A stretch of 64,000 bases of DNA from Dudresnaya verticillata. Taxonomy: Eukaryota. Both the position numbers and the translations under genes were made by a program. A model generated the notes under the pieces. It did no database searches. It had not been told where the DNA came from and saw only the letters and a program-made list of their open reading frames with translations. Position 1 is the stretch's first letter; every line of letters starts with the position of its first letter. This document shows positions 10,055 to 52,170 of this stretch, piece by piece. The stretch spans positions 2,356,001 to 2,420,000 of the forward strand of contig OZ374557.1 in NCBI GenBank assembly GCA_977862235.1, in the 5' to 3' direction.

Positions 10055-10595
10055 AACACGCATTTGAGCGATTTCAGAATACGACTTTCGAAACAGACTG
10101 GAGTCGAATAGCTATTTTCTGATATCGTTGGAAAGGGGAGCGTCCCCTGAGTACGGTGGTCCAATCCGATTGGCTAACGGACCATTCCTTCGAAAGTTAT
10201 GGCGGTTTGCGTGAATTTACCCAAAATATTTCTAGGTATTCTGAATTTCAATTTCCTTGCGTCGAATTGGCCCGGGTGGTCCACTCCGCGGTCCGCACTG
10301 GGCCAAATTGGAAATTGCCGGCCCGCAGCATGCCCCTCGGCGCGCGCGCTGCATGCGCGCCACATCGCCCATCTGGCCCGCCCCGCGCGTGCTCGGCGCC
10401 GCCTGCAGACTACCCCGTCACCAGTTTTCGGCTTTCTGGTGCAACGGGTGCACTGTGCTCTGCGCGTCTGTGCACAAATCCGCACGCGACCGCATACAGA
10501 CTGCCTCATCACCCGCCCCCCGCCCCGTGACGCACAACTCCTTGGGCAAAATCTACTGTCGCGGGTGCCCACCCTCGAGCACACCGTGGATCCCG
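10055..10595 (+). repeat. Left terminal inverted repeat (~541 bp)
   Basis: aacacgcatttgagcgatttcagaatacgac...ccgtggatcccg; imperfect reverse complement of 33094-33639, with about the outer 66 bp matching exactly. Confidence 0.95.
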
Positions 10596-12942: not shown

Positions 12943-14366
12943 GTCGATAGTAATAGGAATGACTACACTTCGGCAAGAAATCCTCTTCCCTGTGTGTACA
13001 GCCGTATTTCTGTTCCTCAGTACCGTAGAGGAGGTCTGTGAAATGCAACGATTGCGCGCTTTTAAACGGAAAGTAACACTTGTAGCTAATGGGTTTTGCT
13101 GTGTACGAGGCTTAGGCATTCTCTGTATACAAATAGGGATATATCTTCGATTGGACACGTTCAAATTCCGGTAATCAGAATGACCGTACTGTACCGAAGC
13201 ACTTATACCGGCAGAAGTATGAGGACCCTGCAAAAATGCAGCCTCAACTTGCTGGATAGTTCACATACACCGCCCAGATATTAGGTGGAACCGCAGATCA
13301 GACTATCTGAACCTCCGCAGAATAGGGCTTTTCTGTATTGCTAGAACGAGGACATGTTGACCTGTGCACAATTCTGGAACGTATTTACAGGGATCACTTG
13401 GACACACTGGTACATGCTGTATTATGGTCTCACGTATGGTATTAATCATTTCCCTGACCTTGATATTACTTGTATCATTGGGTAACACGCATACTTACGT
13501 TTGTCGTGGCATCCGATGGCAGATTGTGATCATCAGTTTGTTTCGGTGCTACAGTGGTCTTATGATGACCATATCTGCAGGGTGGAGGCGCAGGTTTCAG
13601 GAAATGCCAATGTTAAACGACTCTGTGAAGGCGGACAGTAACCTCTTGCCAATTCGAAAACCCGAGGTTATTCCTATCGTTTCTGAGGAACACGTTCATG
13701 TTGGTACAATTGGAATGACTGTACGTTTGCGAATCGTCTACATCACCCCAGTCCAAGGGAGTGTGCCTACGCAGGCACACGTACTTCCAATTTCCCCTCC
13801 ACGTTGTGGAACTATTTCGTATGCCCATTTCTTACCCGCCTTGAGCATTGTTTAGATACTCTGGTAGGGGAGCTGTGAATCGGAATCACTGTACGGTTGG
13901 ACGGCTAGAACTGACTTCCAAATGGTTTCTGAGAAAGTACGAACTTAGGGTGAACACCCCTACCGCACAATACGTCGACATATTTACCGACGACCAATAG
14001 AACCCTGCAGTGATTTGTAGCTTCATGAAATCTCGCGCAATGTATCAGGGCACCACCAATGGTACAGGGCTCTAACTATCTTTCCGGAAAAGTTAAAACC
14101 GTACGTGAGGCTGTTAGTCATGCGGACAAACTTCGTTTCCAGGTTAAAGCTGGAAACCGGCATGATATATCCTGTCTTTCAATGCCGTGACCACTGACCT
14201 GACTACGGACATATTGTTGTAAACCCGAAGTGCTCTTCGTGAAAACCGCAACGCTTATCCCGTGCTCATCAGCTTAACGCAACCAGTTGGAAACACCTAC
14301 GGCAACCAGTTGGAAAGACGTACGGCGACCGTTTTTTCAAAAGTGCTGAATTATACTTTTGGCTGG

Positions 14367-17296
14367 ATGGGCAAGAAACGTTCAGGAAAGGGTGCTGTTA
14401 CACAATCTGAAGCGGACCAAAATTGCTCTTCTGCAAGTATGGGGAGGGCATTGTTTTCTGACGTAATGGAGGGTTCCGTGAATATGAGAATTGACCCCAG
14501 GGAGTGCTTCCCGCTAACGGCAATAAGACCCGTGGCGCGCTCCGGAGTGGAACGCCTCAAAGCTCGCATTCATCTACACTCATCAGAGAAGAAAGGCGGT
14601 GAAGGGACTATTGGGTACGTTGCCGGGTCTGACTCTCCAATTGTCATCGAAATGACAGGGTCTCTGCGGGGTCACGTCGTTGCGTATTTCAAGAATATGA
14701 AAGGGCAAGGGAAGGAGTACACGGAGGAGGAGGCTTTGGAGAAGGCAAACAATCGCTCCAAATGGTACGGCATTATTGACGGCTTGCGTAGACATTGCGT
14801 TATTTTGGAGTTAATGGAGGAGTTCCCAACAGTCTGGCAGTCTTTCGCATGGCCTGTAACGATTTTGAAGGGTGGGCACAACGTCTATGAGCTCCGGCAG
14901 CTGGCAAGACATCAGAATGAGAAACACGACCAGGGATACTTTATCGAGACTACATTTTTTGACCTGGTCCGCGGTCTGCGGGAGGAGGCGGAGAGGTTGC
15001 AGACCAAGACTGGGAAACAACGAAATGCCCCAAAAATTGCGGAGGCGTATGACGGTTCGAAGTTATATCGGAACAACACCATTAAACAGACTGCTCAGAC
15101 AGTTATGCGGTTGGATACGAGAGTAATTCACGCAACTGGACAAATTCCAAATGAGGAGAGACCGGATATAGCTGCAAAGATGACAGGAGACAAGGAAGGG
15201 ACAACACTCGACAAGGACGGAGCAACGAGGACGGTTGACTGCCGCGTCACAGAAAGTTCACCCACATTTCATCACAGAAGTCTGCAATCGCCTTCATGAA
15301 TGGGAACAAACTGGATGATGGCGTAGAAATACAGATTTCATCTTTGTACCGACTACGCGAAGTACATCGACTTCAGAGGTTCCGGTCAGTCACCAGCTTT
15401 CAGACTCTGGAACAATTTGGAAGGGCGAAGGCAGCAATGAGGGAAGCACGGAAATTCTAACGCCTTATCGAGAGCCAGAGTTGGCCTGAAGGTATGAACG
15501 TCATTCGCCAGAATCTCCTTCGTTCCACGAAGCAGGACCACGAGGTGCGTGCAAACTTCGGAAATGACCACGATGTGCTCAAGCTCTTGATAGCCGTTTA
15601 TCGAAGGGAATGCCTGCAACAAGCTCCAGTTAAGGAAAAGAAATTCAAGCACCAGTTCCAAGCAGAAACGGATTCTGGGAAAGATACATCTCTAGACATA
15701 GGAGAAAGTGACAGGCCAATAGTTTCAGCTTCCGAGATTGATAAGACGAGTTCTGAAGTTGATGGAAAAACTCAAGGGGGGAAAGAAAAAGACTCGAAGG
15801 GGGCCCTTGGTGGCCAAAAGCAGTCGGAAGCCGTTAAGGAGACTGTAACTGACACGCAGAGGCAGATTACGCAATCGGTCCTGGATCCTACAGACGACAA
15901 CGACACAGGCGCATTAGCTGGTAACAATGACATCCCGAACGAGTGTATTGGACCGGGTAGTCGTTCTGTTTCTTCAACACGCAATTCGGAGAGACTGGAT
16001 ACCGGTTCTGATCTGGAGGGGAAGGACCCGCTTTCCAAATGCAGGATACGAACATATCAGATGAAGTGGGAGGAATATGACCAATCAATCAGGAATGAAT
16101 GCAGTCCTCTATTTGACGTCGTGCTTGCTGACCCTCCGTATGGAACCCCGAAGGGAATGTCAAATGCTGGAACTGCATACGCAAACCATTTCAGTGAAGA
16201 AGACATCAAGCGCCTTTGCGAGTTTTGTAGACGTTTTGTGAAGGAGGGTGGTTGGGTGTTTCTGTTCTGCAGCTTCTTGAAATTCCCGTTGTTTCAAAAG
16301 GCACTTACCGACAACAATTTCGATAGTCCGCAGTACCCTTTCTTACTCTGCAAAGACACAACTACTGTCCAGATAAGTCGCAAGAAGGGACTGGAGAATG
16401 CGGCTGAGGCAGCAGCCTTCGGAAGACACAAGGGTACATCCAAGAACTCTTTCTCTCCAGACCTCTCCAGCCCGTACCACGTCATCTCGTGTAAGGAGCG
16501 ACGAACTTTTGCTGTGATGACCTCTGTTCCCGTACCCAGAGATAAGCTCATGAAGCCAGGGACTAGCAGGGCACCAGTTCTGACGGAGGAGAAAAATCCT
16601 GATGCACTTAGTGAGATCATCACACCCTTCTGCCCTGAAGGCGGCTCGGCCCTAGAATCTCATGCGGGTACAATGACTACAGGCATTGCCTGCGTTCGGA
16701 CAGACAGAGAGTGTTACCTCGTCGAAAGAAACCCGGAAACATACAGACTGGCTCGTGCACGCCTGCACCGCATGGCAGAGGAGAAGCAGAACGGGTCGTA
16801 TCAAGATTCAGGGGTCCAAGCACAGAAGCGCTCGGCAAAACAGATGGACAAACAGCCGGACACGAAGAGGGTACGCACTGATCAGTCTGAAAGGGAATCA
16901 CAGACTCTAATGATGTCCCCAGGTAAGCAACAGTCTGGGAAACGTACAGGAAAACCTAGGGAGAAACCGCTGTCATGCGATCGACCGCAACGCAAAGGTG
17001 GTGACGCAGTTTGGCTGCTGTGTGGTCCAGATAAGGTTGGGAAGGCAGTACTGCAACCGGGTAACGACGCCCACGGACTGAAGACAGAAATACACCAGCA
17101 AGGGTTGCGGGAGCTCGGCAAGGAGGGAGACAATCTCGTGGCTGTATTTTCCTTCAAAGTTCGCGATGCGTTCGCGGAGAGGCCGTACAAGTACACTTTT
17201 ACGGGTCCGGAGGAACCGCCAGCACTGCTGCGAGACTTAAACGCATTCTTCGTATGGGATCTTCACATGATGGAGGGTTGTGATAGAGAGCCATGA
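14367..17296 (+). pseudogene. ParB/Srx-like domain + beta-class N6-adenine/N4-cytosine DNA methyltransferase fusion (~975 codons; one frameshift, one stop; MTase domain itself uninterrupted in ORF 15494-17296)
   Basis: ParB-like WYGIIDGLRRH; MTase motif IV FDVVLADPPYG (DPPY 16130-16141), RRFVKEGGWVFLF, EKNPDALSEIITPFCPEGG, motif I variant SALESHAGTMTTGIAC, CYLVERNPETYRLARARL. A 1-nt frameshift at ~15248 and TAA 15458-15460 separate the two ORFs. Confidence 0.85.
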
Positions 17297-17392
17297 AAGT
17301 CTGCTCCATCTATTTTTGGGCTGTACCGGATGTACAGTCTGCCAGTCGAGGGCGGCGGACGGTCCACTGCACATTTCCAGCTGGAAGGAACT

Positions 17393-17662
17393 ATGGCATC
17401 CATGCACGCTCGTCGCGACCAAGGCAGCGGAAGTTCGGATGTCGACCCTGCTCGCCTACTGTCCGAATTGCGTGCTCTTCGAGGCGAGGTGGAAGGATTA
17501 AGGACGGCAGTGGAAAGAGCTCGACAACGAATGAGGGCGGTGGTTGCCGCTGTTATGGACCGATTGTCCAGAGTAGTGATAAACGCCGTTTATATTGCCC
17601 GAAGTGCTAGAAGAAGGCTGCGGTCAATCGGAAGGGTAGATACAACGCAACGAAGAAGATGA
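17393..17662 (+). CDS. Small coiled-coil protein (89 aa)
   Basis: DPARLLSELRALRGEVEGLRTAVERARQRMR heptads; resembles the ORFs at 17737 and 32791. Confidence 0.5.
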   Translation: MASMHARRDQGSGSSDVDPARLLSELRALRGEVEGLRTAVERARQRMRAVVAAVMDRLSRVVINAVYIARSARRRLRSIGRVDTTQRRR

Positions 17663-17736
17663 GCCCGACCTGGACTTCGACATTGAGAATCAGTTTCAAG
17701 CTTCCATGTGACTTTTTCAGACTTCGTACAAAAACA

Positions 17737-17988
17737 ATGCCGCTACCTGTCAATCCAACAATGGCCGAAGTGCAGCGAGAGTTGGCACTTCTACGTGCTG
17801 AAATCTACCATCTTCGCAACACTGTGCGGGAGCTAGAAACCGAAGTGCAAAGGGCATTTGATTTCGTAAGACACCTTGTGCATGACTTCGGGAGAAGGAC
17901 GTTGAGAAAACTTCGATGGTCAGGATCCGGATTCAAGACCTGCATAGTTCCGTTCGTGTCGTCAGAGGACGTCAAGATCGCAATGTAG
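17737..17988 (+). CDS. Small coiled-coil protein (83 aa)
   Basis: aaaacaATG context; NPTMAEVQRELALLRAEIYHLRNTVRELETEV heptads. Confidence 0.5.
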   Translation: MPLPVNPTMAEVQRELALLRAEIYHLRNTVRELETEVQRAFDFVRHLVHDFGRRTLRKLRWSGSGFKTCIVPFVSSEDVKIAM

Positions 17989-18262
17989 AAGACCCTTCTT
18001 CCGATTCCGTCTAGAACTGAGTAGACTGCCATCGGGCTGTAGTAAAGATGAGAACGGCCCTAGCACTTACCATCAAGGGTTGCCACTGCGGGAAGCCTGG
18101 AGACCAGCAGTGGAATCCATTGCACACATTTGTAATGGGACACGGCCATTGCGAACTATTCGTCTTTGCCCTCTTCCGTGAATAACTAGCCCCGAAGGTC
18201 CTTCGCTTCGCTGCTCGCGTTTCGCGCATGCACTCGAGTTCCGCAGACTTAGAGATTCAGCC

Positions 18263-18580
18263 GTGCGGAATCAGGACATCGACCAGCTCGAAGTGCTTTT
18301 CGGTTTTGAGGCTCGCAAGAGACTTGTTAACTTCAAGCTCGATTTTAGTCGCCTACCGTATCTCACGTTAGAAAGTTTGGCTCCTATTGCACAGGCGCAA
18401 AAGGCAGAGCCTGACCCGTTTCAGTCATACACGCATGTCTCCGAGCTCAGGAAGGAACTTAGAGAACTCCGTCTCGCGTTTGCGGGCACGGAAGTCGCGT
18501 CGGAGCATAGTGACTCGGTTGAAGGTGCGCTTATTGCCGCCTATGAGGCGATAGAGTATACCCTGCGCATTGGTTCTTGA
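18263..18580 (+). CDS. Hypothetical helical ORF fragment
   Basis: VSELRKELRELRLAF helical segment; no ATG start, possibly a fragment. Confidence 0.3.
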   Translation: MRNQDIDQLEVLFGFEARKRLVNFKLDFSRLPYLTLESLAPIAQAQKAEPDPFQSYTHVSELRKELRELRLAFAGTEVASEHSDSVEGALIAAYEAIEYTLRIGS

Positions 18581-18909: not shown

Positions 18910-19794
18910 CTATGAAGCTACCTTCTGCAAGTCTCTCACCTCATCAACAACGCGTAACACATCGTCTGCAACCAGTCGCAGTAGCAACTCTCGCTTTCCT
19001 CTACTTTCAGCATCATGCCCATTGGTCGCCTTCTCAAAGTTTTCGATGCCAGTTGTTTTCTTCAGCAAGCGCATGCTTTCCATCACAGCAGCAACGATTG
19101 TCTCTCCCTTCGCGGCACGCGCAAAGAACTCATGCTTGACAAAGACATTATCACCAGCTTCGTCAGAGGCTGGAAACAACGCTGCCTCATCTCCGAGGTA
19201 GTCCACATGCGCGCGATAGAACACAGGAACGATAGATGGCACGCGGGCGAGAACTTTCGCAGCATGCGCGCAGCGTTTCTGGAAGCACATATCTGATATC
19301 AGCTCGCAAATCGTCCAAAGCTTGGCGGGAAACTCGGGCGACACAATGAAGACACCGACTCGAGCTTTCTCCATTGCCGTATCCATCGAGCCGTGTGCGT
19401 CATTGCCAACTGCGAGACTTTCCCTGTCTACGAATGCTGATACGCCCCGGTCGCGGAGCATCCTCCACAAAGACATAGCCATCGTCTCCTTGTCCAGCCC
19501 ACTGTGGCACATGAACACGTCATACCCCGACGCATTGAGATAGGCCTGCTTTTCCAGGGCCATCCGCATCTCGTGCTTCAGTGATGGGAAGCCTTTTCCG
19601 AGTATGATCGCGCTCTTGTGCAACGATCCCAACTCCAATCTTAGTGGGACTGTAGGTTGGGCTTCATCACGCTGCGAGAGAGCGTTCCACTTCTCAGACT
19701 GCGGAGTAGCTTCGCGCAAAGTCCAACTTTCGTCCGGTACCCACCGTCCCTCATGAATCTCAGTCCGACGCCGCCGCTCCCGCCCCCGGACCAC
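18910..19794 (-). CDS. Toll/interleukin-1 receptor (TIR) domain protein
   Basis: YDVFMCHSGLD, LRDRGVSAFVDRESL, VGVFIVSPEF, WTICEL (conserved Glu codon 19303-19305), IVPVFY. Frame open across the domain; true start uncertain. Confidence 0.9.
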   Translation of the reverse strand: MVRGRERRRRTEIHEGRWVPDESWTLREATPQSEKWNALSQRDEAQPTVPLRLELGSLHKSAIILGKGFPSLKHEMRMALEKQAYLNASGYDVFMCHSGLDKETMAMSLWRMLRDRGVSAFVDRESLAVGNDAHGSMDTAMEKARVGVFIVSPEFPAKLWTICELISDMCFQKRCAHAAKVLARVPSIVPVFYRAHVDYLGDEAALFPASDEAGDNVFVKHEFFARAAKGETIVAAVMESMRLLKKTTGIENFEKATNGHDAESRGKRELLLRLVADDVLRVVDEVRDLQKVAS

Positions 19795-20540
19795 AACACA
19801 CTTCCCCTCTTGCTGCTGGTCTTCCTGGCTGCGCCGCTTCAGGTTTGCGCCGTCGAGCTTCCACGGTCACTGCTTCTCGCGCGCAACTATTCAGACTGCC
19901 CCGTCTTCCTGCCAGACGTCGCCCCCCGGGCGCCGGCCAGACCCGCATCGTCGGTGGCCAGCCGCCATGGACTTTATGCGCTCCCATCTCGTCTCGTTCC
20001 ATGCGGAGGGCTGCGGGGCCTCCCTCATATCCAGGCGTTGGGCTATCACAGCTCGTAGTGTATGCAGCTGACAAGCGTCCTATGCAGATTGCCATCGTCT
20101 TTTTCGGCTATGGCTGCGCACGGCCGCACACGGCCGAAAATCCCTGGCGGCTACACACGACAAACATCACAAGCACCGACGCCGACGGACCCTCCAAGCG
20201 GAACAACGTCACCGCCCACGCAGCCATCATCTGCAGCGAGCGCTAAACCGAGCACGACGCCGGATGCGAAGGGAGGAAGCAGTGGGGACGGCGCGGGGGC
20301 GAGGGCTCGACCTACGCTGTGAAAAGGGTTCCAGTCGTGTGCTGCCCTTGTCAAGGGCACTGGTGTTGTGTGGTGTGCGTTTTCTTGAGTGGTATGCCAG
20401 TGCGTTTTCAGATGATGTCGGGCTCGGAGCGGTGCGGCTGGGCGTCTCGGGAAATGTAGCAAACGCAGGAGGACCAAAGTGAAAAGCTATAAACGAATAT
20501 GAATATCAGCCAATAGCTAATGGCGCCGGAGAAATGTAGT

Positions 20541-20730
20541 ATCATTTTCTTAGCTTTTTGATTTCCTCCTCCGCGGGAGCTACATAGCTCCCGTGTTTCC
20601 CGAAATCACAATACCTAAGAAAATAGATATTTACACTCGCGGCATTCCGTTAGCTACATAGCCCCCATTGTCGCCGAAATGGGAAACCTAAGAAAATAGC
20701 TTTTCGAATCTGTCGGCGACAGGGAGCTAC
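20541..20730. repeat. Cluster of short inverted/direct repeats
   Basis: ctaagaaaatag at 20614 and 20688, inverted at ~20541-20553; hairpin cgggagcta-ca-tagctcccg (20574-20593); further gctac copies. Confidence 0.7.
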
Positions 20731-20737
20731 CGTCCTC

Positions 20738-22737
20738 GTGGTCACCGCCGTCTCCTACCATCACCACCTCCTCTCTTTTCAAGCTCGAGACGACACAGAC
20801 GATGCCGTTAATCCCGGGCGATTCTTCCGCGGTACGCCGCGCGCGGTTGCGGAGGTAACCGCATTATCACGCCAGTCCCTGCCAGAATGGATAGTTGACG
20901 AGACCATTCTTAGAGCTCTGAACTTAATGCGTTACAATACAATACTATTGCTCTCCCACCCGTGTCTGCGTCTGACCCGATGGCTCCTCCCTCTTCCTCT
21001 CGGGGCTCCCATATCTACCGCCCATGTATGCCGCCGCTGTCTATGCCTCGCTCCTCGCTATCCTTATCTCCTACGTCATCCACGATGCCGTTCTGCTCCC
21101 CACGGCTCAGCTCCATTCTCGTCGCATTCCGCGAGTCATACTCGCTCTGCTCGTGGTCGGTTTCTTTGTCGTCGCAATGCACGCCGGCCAACCCCCTATC
21201 CGGTTTGCGCCATACATTCGTGCAACTCTGCCCTTGTTTCACTGAGGTTCCCTTCGTGAGTATACGATGGGAATCCTTTCCGTTGTAAGCCCTTTCATCG
21301 ATGTCGTGAGAGTCGTCGCTCTATTTGCGTTCTTCTTCAGTTGGCTCGTTACCATTCTGTTCCATGATGTTCCAGAGTTCGATCGCTACTTCGGCGACCT
21401 CACCTCTGGGCTCTACTAGTAGACAGCGGAGCTCCGCTTTCGCTTCGTTAACAACTGCGGATTGGCCGATGCAGATCATGGCTGTTTTGGATTTCTCGAG
21501 TGCAAGTGCGTTGATGTTCTTGGTGTTCATCGTCATTAGAGACTTTCTGTTTTTCAATGTCTTGCTCGCTGTTGTATACAACGCGTACACAGGCCATATC
21601 GAGGAATTTGTTATCGATAAGCTACAAGCGCGTAGGAATGGTATTGCAACCGTGGGTTAGCGTACGACATCTTGGGTGGTGACGATGGAAATTGCATGGT
21701 CCCAGATATCAAACTCCTGTTTGACTAACTTTGGAAGAACAACAAGCACAGCCACATGGATGATAAGCGAGTGGATCTGGTCTTTACAGCCCTGGGTGGC
21801 AATCAGGACAACAGCCTTAGTCGTAAGGAGTTTTCGGACGTAGTCGACGTGCTTCAACTCAAGCTCATCATTGCGCTCGAGAGAATCTATCCGATGGAAA
21901 TGTTTGCCCGGAACTATATGAAGCATCGTGGTGGCAGTCTATTGCTTCTTATGCGCGTCATAATGCCCATACATATCATATGTGCGTTGTCATGGCCGTC
22001 AATCTCATTGTCGTCGTGATTGAGACGACAATGGATCTGCGGAACAAGGACTCTCAAGGAATCCAGTTGGTTTTGTTGTTCTCGACTGTGGGTTCTCCGG
22101 TCTCTATATGTTGGAAATGGTTATGAGCGCTGCCAGTCTAGGTTTGATGTACGTCTTCGCGGCCGCTGGAGTTGAGCTACTTGGTGGTCTGATCTATACG
22201 TCGAATCCTGCACTGAGTCCTAAAACCAATCAAATCTTGGACGGGTATGTTGGCAACGACTACTGGCCACTCATCTTAACTTAACTAAACATACCGTTGA
22301 TTTACACAGTATGGGATCAGGATGGTAGACATTATTTTCTTCCGTCATCGTTGCATCTCTTACAGAAATTGCAGAAGCGCAGAAGCGATTGCATCAGCGT
22401 CGAGTTATGGGAACTGGACCAAGTGGTTCGTCTTGCTTACCTTTATCGTGCATTCACGTGTTGCTGTTAACAGCATGATTCTATATACAATTGGATATCC
22501 AACTACATGTTAGCTTTCTTTATGGACATCTTCGTGATGGAAGACGAGCAGGAAGATGACGACGTTCAACTGTTACAAAATCGCTACGGTTCTGAGCGAG
22601 TCAATGTCTTGCAAGCTAAGACAACGGTTGAGCAAATTTACGTCGCTACATTCCGGGAAAGAGGCCAAGAAATTTTCGATTCGGACTCTCCAGACGTAGA
22701 CCCATGGATGCTGCCGCATATGCCTTCCTACGCCTAG
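20738..22737 (+). pseudogene. TPC1: Two-pore channel (TPC1-like) pseudogene
   Basis: PIRFAPYIR (S4-like), AFASLTTADWP (pore 1), FFNVLLAVVYNAY (S6), EF-hand-like DNSLSRKEFSDVVDVL, AAGVELLGGLIY...NDYW, LAFFMDIF, in TPC order with many frameshifts. Confidence 0.85.
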
Positions 22738-23730
22738 AAATGATGTCTCTGTCCAACATGTAAGTGCTCGTTAAAATAGTTCATGATAAAGAGTGCAGCG
22801 GATGGAGTATGGACGCTAGTAGGGATAGCATCCGCATGCGGATGCATTCGTAGTGAGAACTAAACCGCTGTGGTGGACTTGCAAATCCAAAGATGAACTT
22901 TCCATTTCACGAAAGAGCTGCAGTGCAGCGTGGGTAGCTTTCTAAAAAGAGCTCCTTGTGATTACAAAGTCGAGATGATACGCGTCCGCACCATTTCAAG
23001 CTCACGATGGGACCGTCTATCTCGAGATGTGGCATGTATTCACTGTTTGGAAACGATAATGTTAAATCCCAATTGTAACCACAGGTGGCAACGCCAGACA
23101 TACTTCGATTTGGGCGACGCGGCAGCAGATGGAGGTTTCTTTCCTGGTGGGCTTCAGGTGTCATGTGAGTTGCTTGTCACAAGAATATGTTGAGCAGGCG
23201 TGTTGATGAGGAGGTTGAACCTCCTTCGTTTGGAAACCCTCACACTGAGCCCCGAGACGACATGAGCATCAAGGTTATTTCAGTCGAACACCGCAAGCTG
23301 ACGTTGCCCGTTCGTGACGTATAGACTCATTGCACACCTTTTGCTGTGCACGAAAGCACTGGCGCAATGCCTCAATCTCCTTTTATTACTAGTGAAGACA
23401 ATCGCATCCATTCTGCGATACCCCGAGTAGCTACTCGCTAGCACGCTACCGTTCTCATGTGGTCAGCCAAAATTTCATACTGTACCAATGCAGAAGAGAG
23501 ACCAGTGGTTCTGTTTCGCTTACTTCATTTGCATGCTGCAGGCATTGAAGGTGTTTATCTCACGACTGCTATTCTAAAAGTAATCCGATTTACCCAGCAA
23601 CGATGCTGCCTCATGACGCAGCGTGCACGCTCTGTTCCATAGCGTTACATGCTTTCACTCTAACTCTTTCCCATTTCTGCACCCAGAATATTGACACCCC
23701 TTTGACGCTTGTTTCGGCTTCACCTCCGTC

Positions 23731-26700
23731 TCACTCGAGGCTAGTTGCTTTCCATGTCATTTGCTCCTGGTCCCCCGCCTCTACAGAAGTACTAATTTCC
23801 GGATCGTCTCCTCTCTTTTGCATCTCTAGGGCTTCCCTGATCTTTCGCTGCACCGTGACGGGTATTCCAGAGTTGGTTAAACGCGCGAACTCCACTAAAA
23901 CCGACTTCCCCGGGACCGTATCGCTCCACGGTTTGACATGTCCATTTGCATCGGTTATTCTCGCCTTCCGATAACGCCCGGTGAAAGTATTCCCTCGAGT
24001 ACTCCTTCTATGGTACCACTCTACTTGAAAATTGGTAACCTTGCCCCCCCGCCCGTCTCCCAATTCATCACCTGCCCAAGCCAGAACGGGCATCCTTCGG
24101 TACAATCGTCGGCTAGTACGGCTACAAAGCTGTTCTTCGTGTAAGTGAGGTCCTGTTCCACTACATTCTCAGCATCTGACCCCGATTCCAAGGGTGCGCT
24201 AGGGCCGCTCCCATCCGGTTTGTAAGCCCCTTCCAACTCAAACACATCCGCCAATGCCCAGTGGAATGGGTCTTCACGGTCCTCGTAAACTCTATCACGA
24301 AGTGTCAATAGCTTCTGTAGCTTACTGTGATTGTTGATTCTGGTCTCGGCGGATCGTAGACGCTTGGTTACTTCGTGTTCATCTGGCGGTGCTCGACAGG
24401 GAGTCGGTGGAGTCCGGTGCAAGTTGGGGGAAATAACAAAAATCGCCCTGGCCATCTCGCGTATGTAACGGTTTCCAAGAGTCTTTGCAGCCCCTCTTCA
24501 CTTCGCAGAGAGTCGTGAACGTACCGGCGTCTGTGTCCTTAGCTCCTTCGGCACTGAACCTAAAGTATCGATATTCTGAAATGGGCCCGGTACGCCCGAG
24601 GCATCTGGTCTCTTTGCACAACCCGGAGAAATTAATAATGTGCAACATCTCCGTGACACGCGGTTGAGGAGTGTATGATTGCCGTAGTTCGTGCATGAGG
24701 TCGTCCATGATAATGGCGTCTCGAACGCGTAATCTCTTCGAAGTGCAGCTGAACACTTGATCGATATCGGCATGCGTGTGACCGATGGGGAGAAACGACG
24801 CATGCACTTCCGGAAATACACCCATAGCAACGAGATACTCCAAGTAGCCGAACATAAACCTGTTCATATTTTCCCTAGTACAGTTGTCGACCCGGAGGAA
24901 CAACGTACCCTTCAGTGGCATCCTGTCTCTGCGTGCTATCAATACGCCATGCAAAGCTTAGATGACATGGTTTGCGCCTGTTTCGAACTCGGCAGTCATC
25001 GTGAAAACGTTTAGATGTGGGACTTGGCCATGCTGTAAAACGCCGATTACTTTGGCCTTCATTCCGTGTCCGCGTGTGTCCTTCACCTTGATGTGGAAGT
25101 GTGACAGTCCAAATGCGTACTGGTCAGCACCGTCGATGATGAGTGAGCAATAGTTGTTCGGATACATCGAAGCCATCTCACACTTCTTCCGATATTCTGT
25201 TCGCTCCTGCATGACCATTCTCACGTGCCCTGCCCGCCGCTCGCGAAGCGCTTCGGTTCCCGCTAGATCCGTTGCCGCTTTTGCGAGAAGATCTTTTATC
25301 TCCTCGCACTCGGAGCATTTTGCAAACCGGTGAGTTCGCCTGACCTTAATTTGCGGACAGCTGCGGAGCCAGATACTATAAAAGTAGCTCTGTGATGGTG
25401 TTGCTCTGTTAGGGTACAGAGTGCGGTGCTCAGTCACAAACGTGTTATAGACTGCGAGCTTCTCATAAAAGGGGATGTGGATTTCAGCCTTGTCTGGTTG
25501 CGAATCACCAGACATTTCTGCGAGGCGCTCCAAGAACGACGTTATCACCTCCATCTGTTCCGTAGACGTACCACCAACTATCAGCCCCCTCCCTTTTCTT
25601 TCGCGGCTTTTGTTTGTTCCTTTCACTGCCGATTCCAGATCTCTAGAGAAACCGAAAGCCTTGTCGAGAAATGAGTAACAAACCGGCCGTCCGCTGAAGA
25701 AGTACATGTTGGAGTTGGGTTCCAGTAGTCCCGTGAGGTATCGCTTCCTTTCCGCGCGATTCTTGTCCATCATTTTGCGTGACTCAACCCTGATGTAGAC
25801 TGACTCGATGGTTCCGAAGCATTGTTTCGTTTGGCAGCAGAAAATGTTTGAGATATCCTGCATCTCCATCACCTCCACTACCTTTCTCCTCTTCACAGCC
25901 ATCAAATGCCCCGATGGGGTTCCTTTCGGACGAGGATCATGTCTATAATCCCTCTTCTGGCTCGTCCTAGCACTAGCCTGGCCGTCTCCACGCCCTTCTA
26001 CTGCCATCTCCTCCCCTTCGGAGGGGTGCCGTTCCGGCGTGTCGGAATCAGCATCCTCCCCATCGTCTGCAGTCCCGACGTCAGGATTCTCTTCTTCAGA
26101 AGCGTGATCACGACCTCCCGCACATTCTTCTGCTGTAGTGTCGACGGGATTATTGTCTTATTGTGCGCCGTTCCCGGAATCTCCTTTCTCCCGTTCAGCT
26201 TCGGCTGGTTTTGGAGCCGCGTCATTACTTCCCAGTTTTGATAATCCAGCTTCCGTGTTTTCTATGCCCTCTAATTGGTACGGCCGCGGGCACATACGGG
26301 CGGGACGCTCCAGAGTATAAACCAACGCGGTCTGAGCAACTGCAGCAGAAGGGGGTGTCGAAGGCTCACCTACTATTGCAGCCGGGGGTGTAGACGGAAC
26401 ACGTGGTGTTGCTGGCGGTGTAGTAGTGCGGTCATTACCTTCTTGGTGTGGCTGAGCGCTGGGATCAGACTGACCGGTACGGGTGATTTTTTTCGTCACT
26501 GTCCGCTTATGAGCAAGTCCCTGACCCCCCTACGGCCTGACCGCCTAGTTGACGTCCTGGTACGAACAGTGTGCCTCCCACTCGGTTTCTCCATCTCTAT
26601 CCGAGGGCAAGCTTCCCCGGTCGCCACGCCGGCTTCTCCAGCACCGCTTGTAGGTTGCGGCTTCACAGTGCGGCTTGTTCCTTGTCCCATACATGAATAC

Positions 26701-27175
26701 CCACATTTAGACCAGCTAGAGTGGTGGGGGGAGATTCTATACCGGGATACTTATACATGTACCTCTTGTCCCCATATACATTCCGAATACGGGCATTATA
26801 GATGACTATCCATGTCTCCTTCTTCCGCTGCACCTCTCTTAACCACGTTCCATGCATCTTAACTTTGAATGAACCTGTACTGTCTGCCTCTTCCGGAGAC
26901 GCCGGAGTCATTGGATCAGCCGTACCCACCTCCTCTCCGTTCAGCAACAGCACTACGTTCTTCGACGCGGACATGATTTGCGTGCCAGGGCTGGTTACTG
27001 CGGGCGCGCTTCCGCCCCCCTGTTTGCGAATGGGTTCTTCCGCGGCCGTCTCCGCCGTCGCCGTACCGATAGTCTTGGCCGAGGAATTGTTCCCTCCCAT
27101 CACGGAGACGGCATGTCGGTCGGCAGTGACCGGCCTTTGACGCAAAGCAGTGCGACGTTCTCTTGTGCGAGGCAT
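23731..27175 (-). pseudogene. DDD transposase, Sola/DUF7869-like (~1150 codons; stops and frameshifts)
   Basis: FAKCSEC (CxxC), CSLIIDGADQ (D1), LFLRVDNCTRENMN (D2), SFLPIGHTHADIDQVFS (H...D3). ORFs 26158-26499, 24958-26007 and 24379-24954 share one frame broken by TAA codons; flanking pieces are frameshifted. Confidence 0.85.
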
Positions 27176-28088: not shown

Positions 28089-30340
28089 TCATTTCTGTGC
28101 TGCTGTATTCATATTCGCCAGTTCCGTGTCCCCTGCGCTAGGTGCATCCACCATCGCGTCCATGCGAATGATCTTAGAAGCCACCCTGCGCCTAGCCGCA
28201 TCTTCCTCCTCTGGGACCGCCCCAGCGAACTGCCGCTTGTCCTCGGGTCGCACCGGGAACGGCCAGAATACGGGCGTGTATGTCATCCCGTGATTTCTTA
28301 CGCACCATGCCCGCATTGCAAGCATGTAGCTCGCCTTGCGGTGATATGCAAAACCGGCCGTCTCACCTGTCCATGGCCGCTGTTCCACTGCGTTGGGTTC
28401 GATAATCATCTCTCCGTGTGGAGTCAGCACCACCTTCTTCCCGACATGAGTGTACCCCACGTTTGGTAAATTGGCAACCATGTCTGGATCCACAACTATG
28501 CGCCAGTGCAGAGGCACCACTTCTTTGTACACTCCTGCAAAGTCGTGATTCCCGACTCGAGGTGATCCAGACGTGGACACGAAAATTTCACGTCGGCTCA
28601 CATCCAACTTCACCCATAGATCCAGGCTGCAGATTGTTCCGAGTGCACCTCCTAGACTGTATCCGGTCAAGAATATAGGTCTTTACCTTCTTGCTCTTAA
28701 TTGCCGCACCACTTCCATCACTTCATCTGCAACACTCTTATAGGCAATCGCAAATCGCTTGTGAATCTTACCGTGTAGATATCTTCTGCCGAATAATCGC
28801 TTCAATCGAGTCGTCTCATCTTCACCATAGACACTTGACTTCACCACGTTACGAATATATTCATGGCTCATCCGTAATGATGTATTCGAGTTTCGCATTG
28901 ACGTTGTTCCCTTTAACGTCTCAATGACCCTGTCACTGCAATCAACAACACGTGCTTGAGTATCTGTTGCCTCGCTTCTCACAGCAGCAACGATCTCATA
29001 TTCAAATGGCAACGGGTTTTCTCTAGGAATGAAGCCGTCAAACTTTGCAGTCCCATAATAATAGACATACCCATGCAAAGTTGAACATAATGACGTTCGT
29101 CTGCATCGTAAAGCAGTTTGCTTTCAGCTCAAGACTGTCCTTCGACTCTCTCTTTCTGTACGTAATCGGTTCAACGATTTGTTGTTCCAATTCGTCATCA
29201 TTGTCAACAACAGAGCGGGGGGTTTCTTCATCATTGGCCCATGTGACGTCTTTTTCAGGCAACGGGTACTTGAGGCCGTTCATCGAAGCTTGCTGACTCG
29301 ATGATGAGTCTGAAATGCTGAATGACCATCGAGACCCAGATTCGCCCAGTTCTACGCTTCTGAAAAAACGCTTTCACACCCCCGGTACAATTATGGGGCA
29401 GATTAACATAAGTAGTCACAATGACATAACCCAGCACCAAAAGCCCCGGGCTGTGCGTATAAATCCATGTCAAATCTGCCCTCGCCATGTTGAAGCCAAT
29501 AACCAGAAGAATGATACTTTCACCTTTCGGTCTGCTGAACAGCAGACGAGTGTTCAGACCAATAAACAAAGGGTAGAAAACAAATTTGGTATACAAGAAA
29601 AACCTGAATCCAACCCGTTTGCACCGATGCTTCATGTATGGTGCCTTCTCCAACACATTGGTTGTCTTCCATGCCTCATACCCAATAATTGCGATGAACA
29701 GCAATTCAATGACTGAAAACGGGATACAGAGGAGGAGCTCTACCTTCAAATGGCTCCACACGTGATACGCGCTGAAGTAGAACGAGAAAGCAGCAGCTGA
29801 GAGCATAGACACTTCAGACAGGGTCATGTCCAACACGTACACAATCACAAACTTGGAGACAACGTACGGGATAAGCACGAGCAACTTTGGGATATAGAAG
29901 CCCCAGCCCAATCTCTTAGTGGCCTCCAGAATGCGGTAAGAGTGCAGGCTTGCCCAAAGGTAGAAGGAAGAGAATCCCGCAAAGGCCACATCACGCAACA
30001 CATCACTGGCCACATCCCAATTGTTATACCAATCCGGGAAGGTACTGTAATTCAATGTCCTTTCGCCACCATTTGTTTCTATGAAACGGTTGATGGCATG
30101 AAGAGGGTTGAAGTAGAGTAATGCCATAACATCGAGGAAGAAGACCCAAACCTGCTCATGCGTGATATTTCTGCGCCCTTGTCTCAACAACCGTATTACA
30201 TAGAGGATAGTGAGCGTTAAGAAGAACATACCCGTGAGCAATGTCATTCCTTGAGAGAAATGTTGATACCTCGCAGAGGGCAGGGCGAAAGATATGTTCA
30301 AACTGTACGCATAGAAAAACTTGCCCGGGGGAACGGTGGT
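28089..30340 (-). pseudogene. Class-3 lipase with multi-pass transmembrane N-terminus, pseudogene
   Basis: TGYSLGGALGTI (GxSxG), SGSPRVGNHDF, WRIVVDPDMVANLP, YTHVGK; upstream TLKGTTS and IHKRF; hydrophobic ORF 29255-30301. Ends approximate. Confidence 0.85.
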
Positions 30341-30369
30341 CGTTCCGGAACTCCTTCACCGCCACCACC

Positions 30370-31517
30370 TTCACCAATGATTGCCTAACGCAGAATGTTG
30401 AATCTGCCGTGGCAAACAGCGACTCCCCAGGTGAAACCAAGGCCCTTGGAGACGCGTTCATCGTCGCAACGGGTCTGGCGGTTGATTCCGACGGCCTAGG
30501 GTCGCTTGAAGGCTGTATGCAGGAGCTTCTGCTCTGGGTCAAGAAGGAGTGCTCTATGGACAATGATCTTGTGGACAAGATTTGCAAACGGCTCTGCTCA
30601 GGCGTCTCCAGCGGTAATTTCAGACTGCGTTGCATGGCTTTGATTTACAACAGAGTTACTCTGTCAACGAAGAGCACGTGCAAAAGCGGTGCTCGCTCCT
30701 TGGAGCTACAATTTCCTTGGCGGTCAGTGTTGGGCTAATGCCGAAGACTGTCGACACCATTCTGCCGAAAATCGATACTTTCTCACGCCAGTTGCAGGTT
30801 GGTGTCCCAGAGAAGCGCAAATATGTATCGGGTGTGATATGAGGCTCTCAAGTTGGCAGACATGGCTAAGGACGCATTTTCTTTCAACATTAAGCAGCTT
30901 GGTTTGTATTGCAGTGATACGGATGAAGATTATCGGCCCGTTGAAGATGCTGATGTAGATGTAATTGTCCAGGCTGTTCTACTCCCGAAGTTGTATCGAT
31001 TTGACACCTTGCTTGAACTAGATTCAGTTAAGCGATTCGGAGCGCAGGACGGCGACCAAAACTATTGTTCGAGCTCATTATCATCTTTGTCCGCGACGAT
31101 CTTGCTGTTTTCACGGAGTTCAGAAGCAGGAATGATGCTCTTCTTGCAAAGTACGAGATTGACGTGGTGATTGCGGAAAACAAGATGAGCCTGCTCACAT
31201 TTGCTTCACTTGGAATAGACTGTCAGGATCTCGCATACAGTATGACTGCGACTGCTCTGCAAATTTCCGAGGGCGAGGTCGAGGATTGGGTTACCTGTGC
31301 GATCAGCTCAGGTCTGGAGGATGCGATGATTAAGCAGCTGAATTCGTCGGTCGCGATTTATCGATCAACGCAGCGTATGTTTACGCGAGAAGAGTGGCAG
31401 CCGCTGCCTGAGCGCATCAACATTTGGAAGACTAATATCGGAGATCTACTTGCACAGCTGAGGAACACCCGACCAGCATCCACTATAGCGGGTTTTGGCA
31501 GGAACAAAGGGTTGTAA
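30370..31517 (+). pseudogene. EIF3M: Translation initiation factor 3 subunit M pseudogene (5'-truncated, frameshifted)
   Basis: LVDKICKRL...FRLRCMALIYN; AVLLPKLYRFDTLLELDSVK; PCI domain KMSLLTFASL...EVEDWVTCAISSGL...STQRMFTREEWQPL...WKTNI. Confidence 0.85.
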
Positions 31518-31623: not shown

Positions 31624-32385
31624 TTATGAGTAGTGCTTACCGCATGTTCCCATGCGATGTACAGCTCTTGAAGCTTGCAAGGTATCGAGTGCATTTATAC
31701 CCTCCTTCAGCATCTTGTCCCACCAAGACCAGGTCAAACCCTCAACAATGTGGTAGAACCAAGGCGTAAGACGAAGAGTCGAGGAGATCTGCGCCTCCTT
31801 GAAAAGCCCCTTCAATTCTTCTCGAGTAACATAGCGTACTGCTCGTACGTCGTTTGGTTCAGGAGCAATATCGCTATAGCGCTACGTCCTTCACGCCCAT
31901 GAACACGTAATAAATCTCATGCTCACCCCACACCCCTCCGTCATTTTCACTACGGTAATGAATGCGAGTCATGTATTGCAGGTCGTCCATACCGACCTCT
32001 CCCCCTTTGTCACCGAGCTAGCTCATGAGACAGCTTGCGAATGGCAACACGCATGACCCCTCCAAGCGCATCTCCACTGTCCTGCCGACCAAGCTCAGCA
32101 GGCGTGTGGAGCGGATGAGCGCATACGGTTTTCGTCCAGAACGACAGGAAGGTGATTTTCTTCGCTGCACGTTATTGGAGAAGCATGCGCCCCTTGGTAT
32201 CGAACAAAATCACCGAGAAAGCACGATGCAGCGGCAGGTTTTTTGAAACCATGGTGTGTGTGCACCTGCAGATGGGACTCCTTCTTCGACATGCTACCAA
32301 CAACTCTGTCCTGTAGATCAGTGAGGACGACCACCTCTGACATTAGCCGAACTTGCTCTGGGTCCGACCCTGTCAACGCGTGCAC
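31624..32385 (-). pseudogene. IDI1: Type I isopentenyl-diphosphate isomerase pseudogene
   Basis: DPEQVRLMSEVVVLTD..DRVVGSMSKKESHL; LHRAFSVILFDTKGRMLLQ*RAAKKITF..FWTKTVCAHPL; AIRKLSHEL; LRLTPWF...WWDKM. Confidence 0.92.
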
Positions 32386-33093: not shown

Positions 33094-33639
33094 CGGGATC
33101 CACGGTGTACACGAGGGTGGGCAACCGCGACAATAGATTTTGCCCAAGGAGTTGTGCGTCGCGGGGCGGGGCGGGGGGGCGGGTGACGAGGCAGTCTGTA
33201 TGCGGTCGCGTGCGGATTCGTGCACAGACGCGCACAGCACAGTGCACCCGTTGCACCAGAAAGCCGAAAACTGGTGACGGGTAGTCTGCAGGCGGCGCCG
33301 AGCACGCGCGGGGCGGGCCAGATGGGCGATGTGGCGCGCATGCAGCGCGCGCGGCGAGGGGCATGCTGCGGGCCGGCAATTTCTAATTTGGCCCAGTGCG
33401 GACCGCGGAGTGGGCCGCCCGGGCCAAATCGACGCAAGGACATTGAAATTCAGAATACCTGGAAATATTTTGGGTAAATTCACGCAAACCGCCATAATGT
33501 TCGAAGGAATGGTCCGTTAGCCAATCGGATTTGACCATCGTACTCACGGGACGCTCCCCTTTCTAACGCTACCAGAAAATAGCTATTCGACTCCAGTCTG
33601 TTTCGAAAGTCGTATTCTGAAATCGCTCAAATGCGTGTT
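33094..33639 (-). repeat. Right terminal inverted repeat (~546 bp)
   Basis: cgggatccacggtgt...aatcgctcaaatgcgtgtt, followed by TSD ATGG at 33640-33643. Confidence 0.95.
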
Positions 33640-49240: not shown

Positions 49241-52170
49241 ATGGGCAAGAAACGTTCAGGAAAGGGTGCTGTTACACAATCTGAAGCGGACCAAAATTGC
49301 TCTTCTGCAAGTATGGGGAGGGCATTGTTTTCTGACGTAATGGAGGGTTCCGTGAATATGAGAATTGACCCCAGGGAGTGCTTCCCGCTAACGGCAATAA
49401 GACCCGTGGCGCGCTCCGGAGTGGAACGCCTCAAAGCTCGCATTCATCTACACTCATCAGAGAAGAAAGGCGGTGAAGGGACTATTGGGTACGTTGCCGG
49501 GTCTGACTCTCCAATTGTCATCGAAATGACAGGGTCTCTGCGGGGTCACGTCGTTGCGTATTTCAAGAATATGAAAGGGCAAGGGAAGGAGTACACGGAG
49601 GAGGAGGCTTTGGAGAAGGCAAACAATCGCTCCAAATGGTACGGCATTATTGACGGCTTGCGTAGACATTGCGTTATTTTGGAGTTAATGGAGGAGTTCC
49701 CAACAGTCTGGCAGTCTTTCGCATGGCCTGTAACGATTTTGAAGGGTGGGCACAACGTCTATGAGCTCCGGCAGCTGGCAAGACATCAGAATGAGAAACA
49801 CGACCAGGGATACTTTATCGAGACTACATTTTTTGACCTGGTCCGCGGTCTGCGGGAGGAGGCGGAGAGGTTGCAGACCAAGACTGGGAAACAACGAAAT
49901 GCCCCAAAAATTGCGGAGGCGTATGACGGTTCGAAGTTATATCGGAACAACACCATTAAACAGACTGCTCAGACAGTTATGCGGTTGGATACGAGAGTAA
50001 TTCACGCAACTGGACAAATTCCAAATGAGGAGAGACCGGATATAGCTGCAAAGATGACAGGAGACAAGGAAGGGACAACACTCGACAAGGACGGAGCAAC
50101 GAGGACGGTTGACTGCCGCGTCACAGAAAGTTCACCCACATTTCATCACAGAAGTCTGCAATCGCCTTCATGAATGGGAACAAACTGGATGATGGCGTAG
50201 AAATACAGATTTCATCTTTGTACCGACTACGCGAAGTACATCGACTTCAGAGGTTCCGGTCAGTCACCAGCTTTCAGACTCTGGAACAATTTGGAAGGGC
50301 GAAGGCAGCAATGAGGGAAGCACGGAAATTCTAACGCCTTATCGAGAGCCAGAGTTGGCCTGAAGGTATGAACGTCATTCGCCAGAATCTCCTTCGTTCC
50401 ACGAAGCAGGACCACGAGGTGCGTGCAAACTTCGGAATTGACCACGATGTGCTCAAGCTCTTGATAGCCGTTTATCGAAGGGAATGCCTGCAACAAGCTC
50501 CAGTTAAGGAAAAGAAATTCAAGCACCAGTTCCAAGCAGAAACGGATTCTGGGAAAGATACATCTCTAGACATAGGAGAAAGTGACAGGCCAATAGTTTC
50601 AGCTTCCGAGATTGATAAGACGAGTTCTGAAGTTGATGGAAAAACTCAAGGGGGGAAAGAAAAAGACTCGAAGGGGGCCCTTGGTGGCCAAAAGCAGTCG
50701 GAAGCCGTTAAGGAGACTGTAACTGACACGCAGAGGCAGATTACGCAATCGGTCCTGGATCCTACAGACGACAACGACACAGGCGCATTAGCTGGTAACA
50801 ATGACATCCCGAACGAGTGTATTGGACCGGGTAGTCGTTCTGTTTCTTCAACACGCAATTCGGAGAGACTGGATACCGGTTCTGATCTGGAGGGGAAGGA
50901 CCCGCTTTCCAAATGCAGGATACGAACATATCAGATGAAGTGGGAGGAATATGACCAATCAATCAGGAATGAATGCAGTCCTCTATTTGACGTCGTGCTT
51001 GCTGACCCTCCGTATGGAACCCCGAAGGGAATGTCAAATGCTGGAACTGCATACGCAAACCATTTCAGTGAAGAAGACATCAAGCGCCTTTGCGAGTTTT
51101 GTAGACGTTTTGTGAAGGAGGGTGGTTGGGTGTTTCTGTTCTGCAGCTTCTTGAAATTCCCGTTGTTTCAAAAGGCACTTACCGACAACAATTTCGATAG
51201 TCCGCAGTACCCTTTCTTACTCTGCAAAGACACAACTACTGTCCAGATAAGTCGCAAGAAGGGACTGGAGAATGCGGCTGAGGCAGCAGCCTTCGGAAGA
51301 CACAAGGGTACATCCAAGAACTCTTTCTCTCCAGACCTCTCCAGCCCGTACCACGTCATCTCGTGTAAGGAGCGACGAACTTTTGCTGTGATGACCTCTG
51401 TTCCCGTACCCAGAGATAAGCTCATGAAGCCAGGGACTAGCAGGGCACCAGTTCTGACGGAGGAGAAAAATCCTGATGCACTTAGTGAGATCATCACACC
51501 CTTCTGCCCTGAAGGCGGCTCGGCCCTAGAATCTCATGCGGGTACAATGACTACAGGCATTGCCTGCGTTCGGACAGACAGAGAGTGTTACCTCGTCGAA
51601 AGAAACCCGGAAACATACAGACTGGCTCGTGCACGCCTGCACCGCATGGCAGAGGAGAAGCAGAACGGGTCGTATCAAGATTCAGGGGTCCAAGCACAGA
51701 AGCGCTCGGCAAAACAGATGGACAAACAGCCGGACACGAAGAGGGTACGCACTGATCAGTCTGAAAGGGAATCACAGACTCTAATGATGTCCCCAGGTAA
51801 GCAACAGTCTGGGAAACGTACAGGAAAACCTAGGGAGAAACCGCTGTCATGCGATCGACCGCAACGCAAAGGTGGTGACGCAGTTTGGCTGCTGTGTGGT
51901 CCAGATAAGGTTGGGAAGGCAGTACTGCAACCGGGTAACGACGCCCACGGACTGAAGACAGAAATACACCAGCAAGGGTTGCGGGAGCTCGGCAAGGAGG
52001 GAGACAATCTCGTGGCTGTATTTTCCTTCAAAGTTCGCGATGCGTTCGCGGAGAGGCCGTACAAGTACACTTTTACGGGTCCGGAGGAACCGCCAGCACT
52101 GCTGCGAGACTTAAACGCATTCTTCGTATGGGATCTTCACATGATGGAGGGTTGTGATAGAGAGCCATGA
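49241..52170 (+). pseudogene. ParB-like + beta-class amino-MTase fusion, duplicate copy
   Basis: Same motifs and same two lesions; MTase ORF 50368-52170. Confidence 0.85.

Follow-up and report, generated by a model that had tools for sequence, protein, structure and literature searches.

The locus studied here raises the question of why a bacterial-type amino-methyltransferase joined to a ParB-like domain should occur in a eukaryotic genome, and what such a protein would do there. Within the window, by which we mean the whole analysed stretch of 64,000 nucleotides of Dudresnaya verticillata DNA, the region 14367-17296 holds a single gene with two breaks, a 1-base frameshift (~15249) and a TAA codon (15458); at the frameshift, a V codon (15246-15248) is followed by a two-base remainder and an R codon (15251). 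The original prediction, made from the letters of the window, had named the motifs DPPY and IIDGLRRH, the frameshift and the stop codon, and all were found in place (Table 1). The catalytic domain, for which an open frame of ~600 aa had been claimed, lies in one of 611 aa (15461-17296), and its match to PF01555 (N6_N4_Mtase) reaches 30.4 bits against a curated cut-off of 26.7. DPPY at 16130 precedes motif I at 16655, which is the permuted order of the beta class, and the beta-class identity proposed earlier agrees with both the PF01555 match and a fold match to CcrM (see below).

Table 1. Features of the methyltransferase gene, the transposase and the intervening DNA (positions of the window).
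Feature	Position	Strand	Remark
23-bp tandem repeat, 2.3 copies, imperfect palindrome	14279..14330	.	37 bp 5' of the start codon
5' gene part	14367..15248	+	predicted ParB/Srx-fold domain, then predicted helix-turn-helix region
Predicted ParB/Srx-fold domain	about 14445-14900	+	box GIIDGLRRH at 14769-14795
Frameshift	15249..15250	+	one base short vs intact relatives
Conserved helical region	15251..15661	+	interrupted by TAA 15458-15460
Beta-class amino-methyltransferase domain	16025..16771	+	PF01555 E 4.9e-7; family HMM E 1.6e-87; predicted folds
DPPY (motif IV)	16130-16141	+	within methyltransferase domain
Altered motif I, ESHAG	16655-16669	+	within methyltransferase domain
C-terminal domain X, ~100 aa	16994..17296	+	stop codon at 17294-17296
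Array of short direct and inverted repeats	20472..20720	.	between methylase and transposase genes
Broken DUF7869 transposase	23731..26529	-	PF25273 E 1.4e-34; convergent with methyltransferase gene
Domain X 5' of transposase gene	26663..27175	-	stop now separates it from the transposase
Second copy of the methyltransferase gene	49241..52170	+	in 34.87-kb direct duplication, both breaks kept

An intact SAM-binding motif I is absent from the window copy, which reads ESHAG instead. The earlier remark that motif I deviates from DPFxGxG stands; part of the deviation is family-wide, because the family motif itself is D-x-[YF]-[AG]-G (D in 91/96 members, Y/F in 85/96), and part is private to the window copy. 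Judged from its sequence, with both breaks and ESHAG for motif I, this copy is a pseudogene that would be unable to make the full protein, as had been suspected. It forms the longest end branch of the DPPY clade (0.78 vs 0.13-0.51) and is altered at 9 of 58 sites that are invariant among its sisters (0-6 in the sisters themselves), the decay being spread across the protein. A Pfam scan found no SET domain in the window protein, and no Pfam family matched its ParB-like part, the assignment of which is a structure prediction. The tandem repeat just upstream of the gene (score 7, equalled by none of 100 resampled sequences) is a candidate binding site. That a bacterial-type enzyme sits in a eukaryotic setting was borne out by Pfam matches to a Gypsy integrase, PCI/eIF3m, a lipase and a TIR domain in the window; a scan upstream of the gene for sigma-70 promoters, a bacterial signal in this eukaryotic setting, gave no match.

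Dozens of relatives carry the same parts in one protein of 800-1100 aa. Searched with a family profile, 1.84 billion representatives yielded 332 matches at E<=1e-30, the best 150 of which were listed, and the methylase query and the N-terminal query recovered the same proteins of 884-1051 aa, reading through both breaks; the proposal that repair of the frameshift and the TAA would yield one protein is thereby upheld. ParB-like, helical and methyltransferase parts occur in one open reading frame in 72 of the 77 family proteins of at least 640 aa (counted by hand, near-identical cluster members included), so that the two parts are not separate genes in these intact homologues. PF01555 was matched at E<=0.01 by 46 of 50 long relatives, and among the 50 close family members scanned with Pfam none had a SET domain or an oxygenase family. 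Among the rows listed, prokaryotic (phage or plasmid) matches had 22-28% identity, only in the methylase domain, and none spanned 80% of the query; one of the best is located between genes for a terminase and a portal protein, and no ParB gene is annotated close to it. Scans with a pattern from the methylase alignment, and limited by that pattern, confirmed none of 230 matches in metagenomes, none of 117 in genome contigs and none of 82 in viral contigs as relatives. The gene family is more widespread than the window alone could reveal.

Structure prediction gave both halves of the protein a recognisable fold. The model of an intact relative (P0014) had a mean pLDDT of 63, with the methylase core mostly at 70-90, and matched CcrM (VIA Z 21.7, rmsd 4.2, 229 aligned), M1.HpyAVI (Z 21.1), M.BceJIV, the bdelloid N4CMT and M.MboIIA, all five within Z 21.7-19.0 and with Foldseek E-values from 5e-11 to 9e-9. 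The methyltransferase part is thus predicted to have the beta-class Rossmann fold, the lack of which would have spoken against the enzyme. The N-terminal 398 aa of another relative (P0147), folded with 85 sequences, gave pLDDT 93.8 and pTM 0.85; its three top Foldseek matches were ParB, pNOB8 ParB and sulfiredoxin (probability 1.00, best E 0.01), and the eight top VIA rows had Z 10.8-6.5, the next, unrelated row falling to Z 5.0 and helix-turn-helix-type rows to about 4. We take all eight, in part from their titles, to be ParB/Srx-fold proteins; they include PadC (Z 10.8, rmsd 2.5, 97 aligned) and KorB (Z 8.8, rmsd 6.7, 189 aligned, residues 33-345). A ParB/Srx fold is therefore predicted for the N-terminus of the relatives, in line with the ParB/Srx-like motif noticed in the window. 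What we take to be the nucleotide-binding residues of this fold, namely a G-x-x-R box, an upstream R and a downstream N, are unevenly kept in 85 members (box glycine 98%, upstream R 99%, downstream N 87%, box R 48%), and the window box reads G-L-R-R.

The transposase in the window is interrupted by in-frame stops and by two or more frameshifts and, from its sequence, is evidently dead. PF25273 (DUF7869) alone passed the cut-off in this transposase and six relatives, none of them matching a Plavaka- or EnSpm-type Pfam family. DUF7869 transposases share three conserved aspartate motifs, DGADQ, DNC and GHTHxDID, which we take to resemble those of Sola (DDD) transposons; Sola transposons are recognised by their DDD catalytic motifs, their termini and a 4-bp target duplication. 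Among the transposase relatives P0051-P0110, most end in a conserved C-terminal domain (FVAV...PFW[LI][GA]...WY) without a Pfam family, perhaps BAH- or chromo-like.

Linkage between the gene and such transposases is observed directly. Metagenome matches to the transposase were examined for the best 80 of 494, and among these 7 of 14 long loci (>=5.5 kb) carry a match to the methylase family HMM at E<=1e-3 (L009, L012, L019, L025, L034, L035 and L064), in agreement with the claim that the gene is transposon-encoded. The other seven long loci among these 80 gave no family match at that threshold, two of them (L041, L052) showing a ParB-like box by eye or as a weak match and five showing nothing. 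Homologues are thus found with a transposase, and L009 holds both genes intact as a divergent two-gene unit (929-aa gene, 912-aa transposase), the left end of which bears short inverted repeats. The two genes are also divergent in L012, L019 and L025, lie on the same strand in L034 and are convergent in L035, L064 and the window; the L019 protein aligns with the family over 652 columns (probability 99.8). As indirect evidence, matching both families by source and exact contig size gave 9 matches where 0.07 were expected, i.e. 9 of the 17 methylase contigs of at least 5.9 kb, from four independent cluster pairs; the pairwise identities of ParB parts and transposases are correlated over 9 pairs (Spearman 0.88, permutation p 2e-4), a concordance to which related hosts can also contribute. 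Both genes of the window are nearest to the same four linked pairs. Six pairs of flanks in the window gave terminal inverted repeats no better than shuffles (the best was reached by 4/30), and we therefore infer one element without delimited ends; the 6.4 kb between its two genes contains host-like gene fragments. ParB-like ORFs, with the methylase part weak or unclear, adjoin DUF7869 transposases in L052 250-4855 (-), L041 598-2331 (-) and L021 69-371 (-).

The C-terminal domain X of the methylase gene recurs on the transposase side (hhalign probability 97.9; HMM E 1.1e-20), although it has no Pfam family. It is in frame with the DUF7869 N-terminus in 5 of 60 intact transposases, is absent from the other 55 and is also absent from many methylases. 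A prediction of the complex of methylase X with transposase X, made without alignments, scored 0.00, which speaks neither for nor against pairing. A likeness of domain X to the C-terminal domains of CACTA TnpA gained no backing from Pfam, as nine X-bearing queries gave no such match at E<=5.

Between the two genes of the window lies a repeat array with a score of 15, where resampled sequences had a maximum of 9 and none of 40 reached 15, and such intergenic arrays are present in 6 of 7 relatives as well, each above all of 40-100 resampled sequences. L025 has no array between its genes and L003 has an array with no methylase seen; because of these two loci, the arrays may be internal binding arrays or element ends. 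The same gene includes a SET domain in L035 (E 6e-8), L064 (E 1e-5) and L034 (E 2.8e-4) and an OTU domain in L025 (E 6.7e-7), which points to chromatin. In sequence as well as in base content these loci are far removed from the close family, and they probably belong to other eukaryote hosts; introns are apparent by eye in L035 and L064. SET domains suspected by eye in L019 and L052 gained no confirmation from Pfam. In L025 (711-4283, -), one ORF unites an OTU protease, a ParB-like part and a DPPW methylase, divergent from the DUF7869 transposase.

Of 93 members, 31 have a canonical motif IV and 62 do not, and 32 of the 50 proteins of at least 750 aa lack the canonical form. At least 8 changes of motif IV were counted on a tree of 78 members built without the motif columns, ten rows with gaps in that motif being omitted. 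The window protein groups with the DPPY clade, which keeps DPPY; variants are DPPF (L019) and DPPW (L025, L035, L064), and the intact element L009 has TAIP where DPPY is expected. The window's clade and members from distant hosts have retained DPPY, motif I and an EEK motif as a set, and catalysis is therefore probably under selection in them. Long intact ORFs that have lost DPPY and kept the SAM-binding motif form a large clade, including P0112, P0115-P0121, P0138-P0155 and L009 335-3124; its members are candidate pseudo-methyltransferases.

How might these parts work together? We propose that the gene is an accessory gene of a DUF7869 transposon, whose intact protein binds internal repeats and methylates its own element, keeping it expressed; we rate the chances of this proposal as even. 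The helix-turn-helix or helical region would bind short palindromic repeats inside the element, the ParB domain would serve nucleotide-gated loading or spreading, the DPPY members would methylate the element's own DNA, probably at N6-adenine, and the methyl mark would counter silencing, which would amount to self-marking by a transposon. The fusion, the fold matches, the linkage and the arrays between the genes argue for this, as do the retention of DPPY in the window's clade and the SET and OTU partners; in the accessible text of PMC12695648, moreover, 6mA accompanies transcriptionally permissive chromatin in many eukaryotes. Against it stand the scarcity of canonical motif IV and the TAIP of the intact L009, the ParB box arginine in less than half of the members and the ParB match at a Foldseek E of 0.01, arrays that could be element ends, long loci without a family match, the missing terminal inverted repeats and the host-like fragments between the genes of the window, and a concordant divergence that may stem from related hosts; repeated switches of the N6_N4 domain between 6mA and 4mC (PMC8885841, in the part accessible) also weaken the choice of adenine. 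The long intact ORFs without DPPY, which form a supported clade (SH 0.978 in a tree with motif columns), could instead mean that the protein is an anti-silencing scaffold binding DNA or chromatin in the manner of VANDAL VANC, its methyltransferase fold serving binding or dimerisation and catalysis being dispensable. The motif I aspartate kept by these ORFs, an N-terminal region conserved throughout, the intact L009 and the SET and OTU partners would all suit a scaffold, but the joint retention of DPPY, motif I and EEK does not, and we consider this reading rather unlikely, if worth keeping in view.

That the gene is strictly carried along with the transposase, and that domain X occurs on both proteins, would also be expected if the protein controlled transposition, marking or bridging the ends or target DNA while X bound the site or partner that the transposase also binds, with copy control, target immunity or protection from the element's own transposase as variants. 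Since X is absent from 55/60 transposases and from many methylases, and since fusions to SET and OTU would suit a control of chromatin more than chemistry at the ends, we think transposition control distinctly improbable. Very improbable, in our judgement, is that the two genes are remains of two separate elements, or that the gene owes its place to neutral carriage, bacterial contamination or an artefact of assembly. The missing element ends, the host-like fragments and the divergent layout of the close intact relatives L009 and L012, compared with the convergent one of the window, would fit this reading, yet both window genes are nearest to the same four linked pairs and the convergent layout recurs in L035 and L064. 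The distant prokaryotic matches listed, confined to the methylase domain, the pattern scans of genome and viral contigs, which confirmed no relative, and the Gypsy integrase and PCI/eIF3m fragments flanking the gene count against it as well, as does the decay spread over the protein. Our proposal of self-methylation can be carried further, to a ParB clamp-methyltransferase, in some cases with SET or OTU added, that, in DUF7869 transposons of several eukaryote lineages, would load onto parS-like repeats, spread in a CTP-dependent manner and write 6mA and chromatin marks over its own element. This extension is doubtful; if true, it would place a ParB sliding clamp at work in the eukaryotic nucleus and constitute a self-targeted, mark-writing anti-silencing system.

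Methylase-carrying transposons of red algae are already known from a preprint on Bostrychia (bioRxiv 10.1101/2025.02.11.637652). In its accessible parts, PAG2 is a PF01555 methylase with SET and PAG3 a ParB-like domain with a 2OG-dependent oxygenase, beside tandem inverted repeats; their carriers are Plavaka, Mutator, Zisupton and other elements, and its authors state that the accessory genes pass from one transposon family to another and propose that elements modify themselves. As described there, PAG2 shares with our gene a PF01555 domain carried by a DNA transposon and PAG3 a ParB-like N-terminus, PAG3's adjoining tandem inverted repeats, and the PF01555-type methylase with SET in L034, L035 and L064 is the PAG2 layout. 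Unlike in PAG2 and PAG3, the ParB-like and methylase domains are here joined in one protein; SET is missing from the scanned close members and the window protein, a methyltransferase rather than an oxygenase follows the ParB-like domain, and the gene travels with a DUF7869 transposase, for which Pfam gave no Plavaka match. PAG2, compared by description only, may itself belong to the family, its ParB domain having escaped notice. The VANDAL protein VANC, likened by description only from the same preprint, is likewise an accessory protein that a transposon encodes and that is proposed to act on that element via internal repeats; VANC removes methylation, whereas the protein here would add a mark.

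The family shares with the bacterial enzymes CcrM, M1.HpyAVI/DpnA, M.BceJIV, M.MboIIA and M.RsrI the order of motif IV before motif I and, by prediction, the fold (Z 19-22), but differs from them in its low identity (~16-22%), its long N-terminal ParB-like and helical regions and the lack of DPPY in many members; a restriction partner was not seen. The N4CMT of bdelloids (predicted fold match Z 19.0) is also a bacterial-type PF01555 enzyme in a eukaryotic chromatin context; in the accessible text (PMC8885841) it belongs to the host, has a chromodomain and marks transposons, whereas the gene here is carried by a transposon and has DPPY. With ParB, KorB and PadC the family shares the predicted ParB/Srx fold, a G-x-x-R-type box and a helical region after it; unlike with ParB CTPase clamps, no ParA partner was seen in the loci examined. 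Eukaryotes have acquired ParB-linked methylases before, as phage loci with ParB, terminase and methylase and a chlorophyte Dam with ParB-HTH indicate (PMC4738411, accessible part), and the clades treated there are unpermuted or of another group, none being on a cut-and-paste transposon.

A ParB-methylase fusion is not described in the accessible parts of PMC12115072, PMC4738411, PMC6431247, PMC5751038, PMC13519894, PMC8885841, PMC12344493 and PMC12695648. Our literature search, with most subscription papers and Repbase outside its scope, returned nothing on DUF7869/PF25273, and for the combination of a transposon, an accessory gene, SET and ParB it found only the Bostrychia preprint. Within that scope, no publication turned up on the ParB-methylase fusion, on DUF7869 elements as its carrier, on a domain common to methylase and transposase or on two thirds of the members having lost DPPY. 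The family provides single-protein candidates that would join a targeting module to a writer, could supply 6mA outside the AMT1 pathway and gives DUF7869 a context, that of a transposase with a putative chromatin-modifying partner. The N6_N4_Mtase expansions of red algae, such as the 66 genes of Asparagopsis taxiformis (PMC12115072, accessible part), are likely due in part to this family, a link that we infer. As intact members and candidate binding arrays are known, self-marking is directly testable.

The second copy of the gene, at +34874, has 1 mismatch to the first over 14001-17700 and shares both breaks with it. It belongs to a direct duplication (2868-29136+ vs 37744-64000, 99.83% over 26.3 kb) that is either a segmental duplication or two haplotypes assembled in tandem; we rejected the idea of a giant element arrayed in tandem with its junction at 20.6 kb, as the duplication starts at 2868/37744 and the preceding DNA is ~70% alike. 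Its boundary directly follows two Gypsy pol remnants, about 70% alike and in the same register. Directly 3' of the methylase gene, 17297-18580 (+) holds three short ORFs of about 85-130 aa, all of which contain coiled-coil stretches of similar appearance; their Pfam matches are weak and below the cut-off. An open frame of 318 aa with a TIR_2 domain (18910-19866, -; E 3.6e-10) lies between methylase and transposase and is possibly cargo. Broken host-like genes are ion-channel-like (21500-22740, +; Ion_trans E 0.045), of lipase_3 type (28089-30355, -; E 2e-15) and of PCI/eIF3m type (31032-31517, +), and a piece resembling isopentenyl-diphosphate isomerase was seen, by eye only, at about 32000-32250 (-). 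An inverted repeat pair of 547 bp (10055-10595 vs 33094-33639, 94.5%) is located at the ends of Gypsy pieces.
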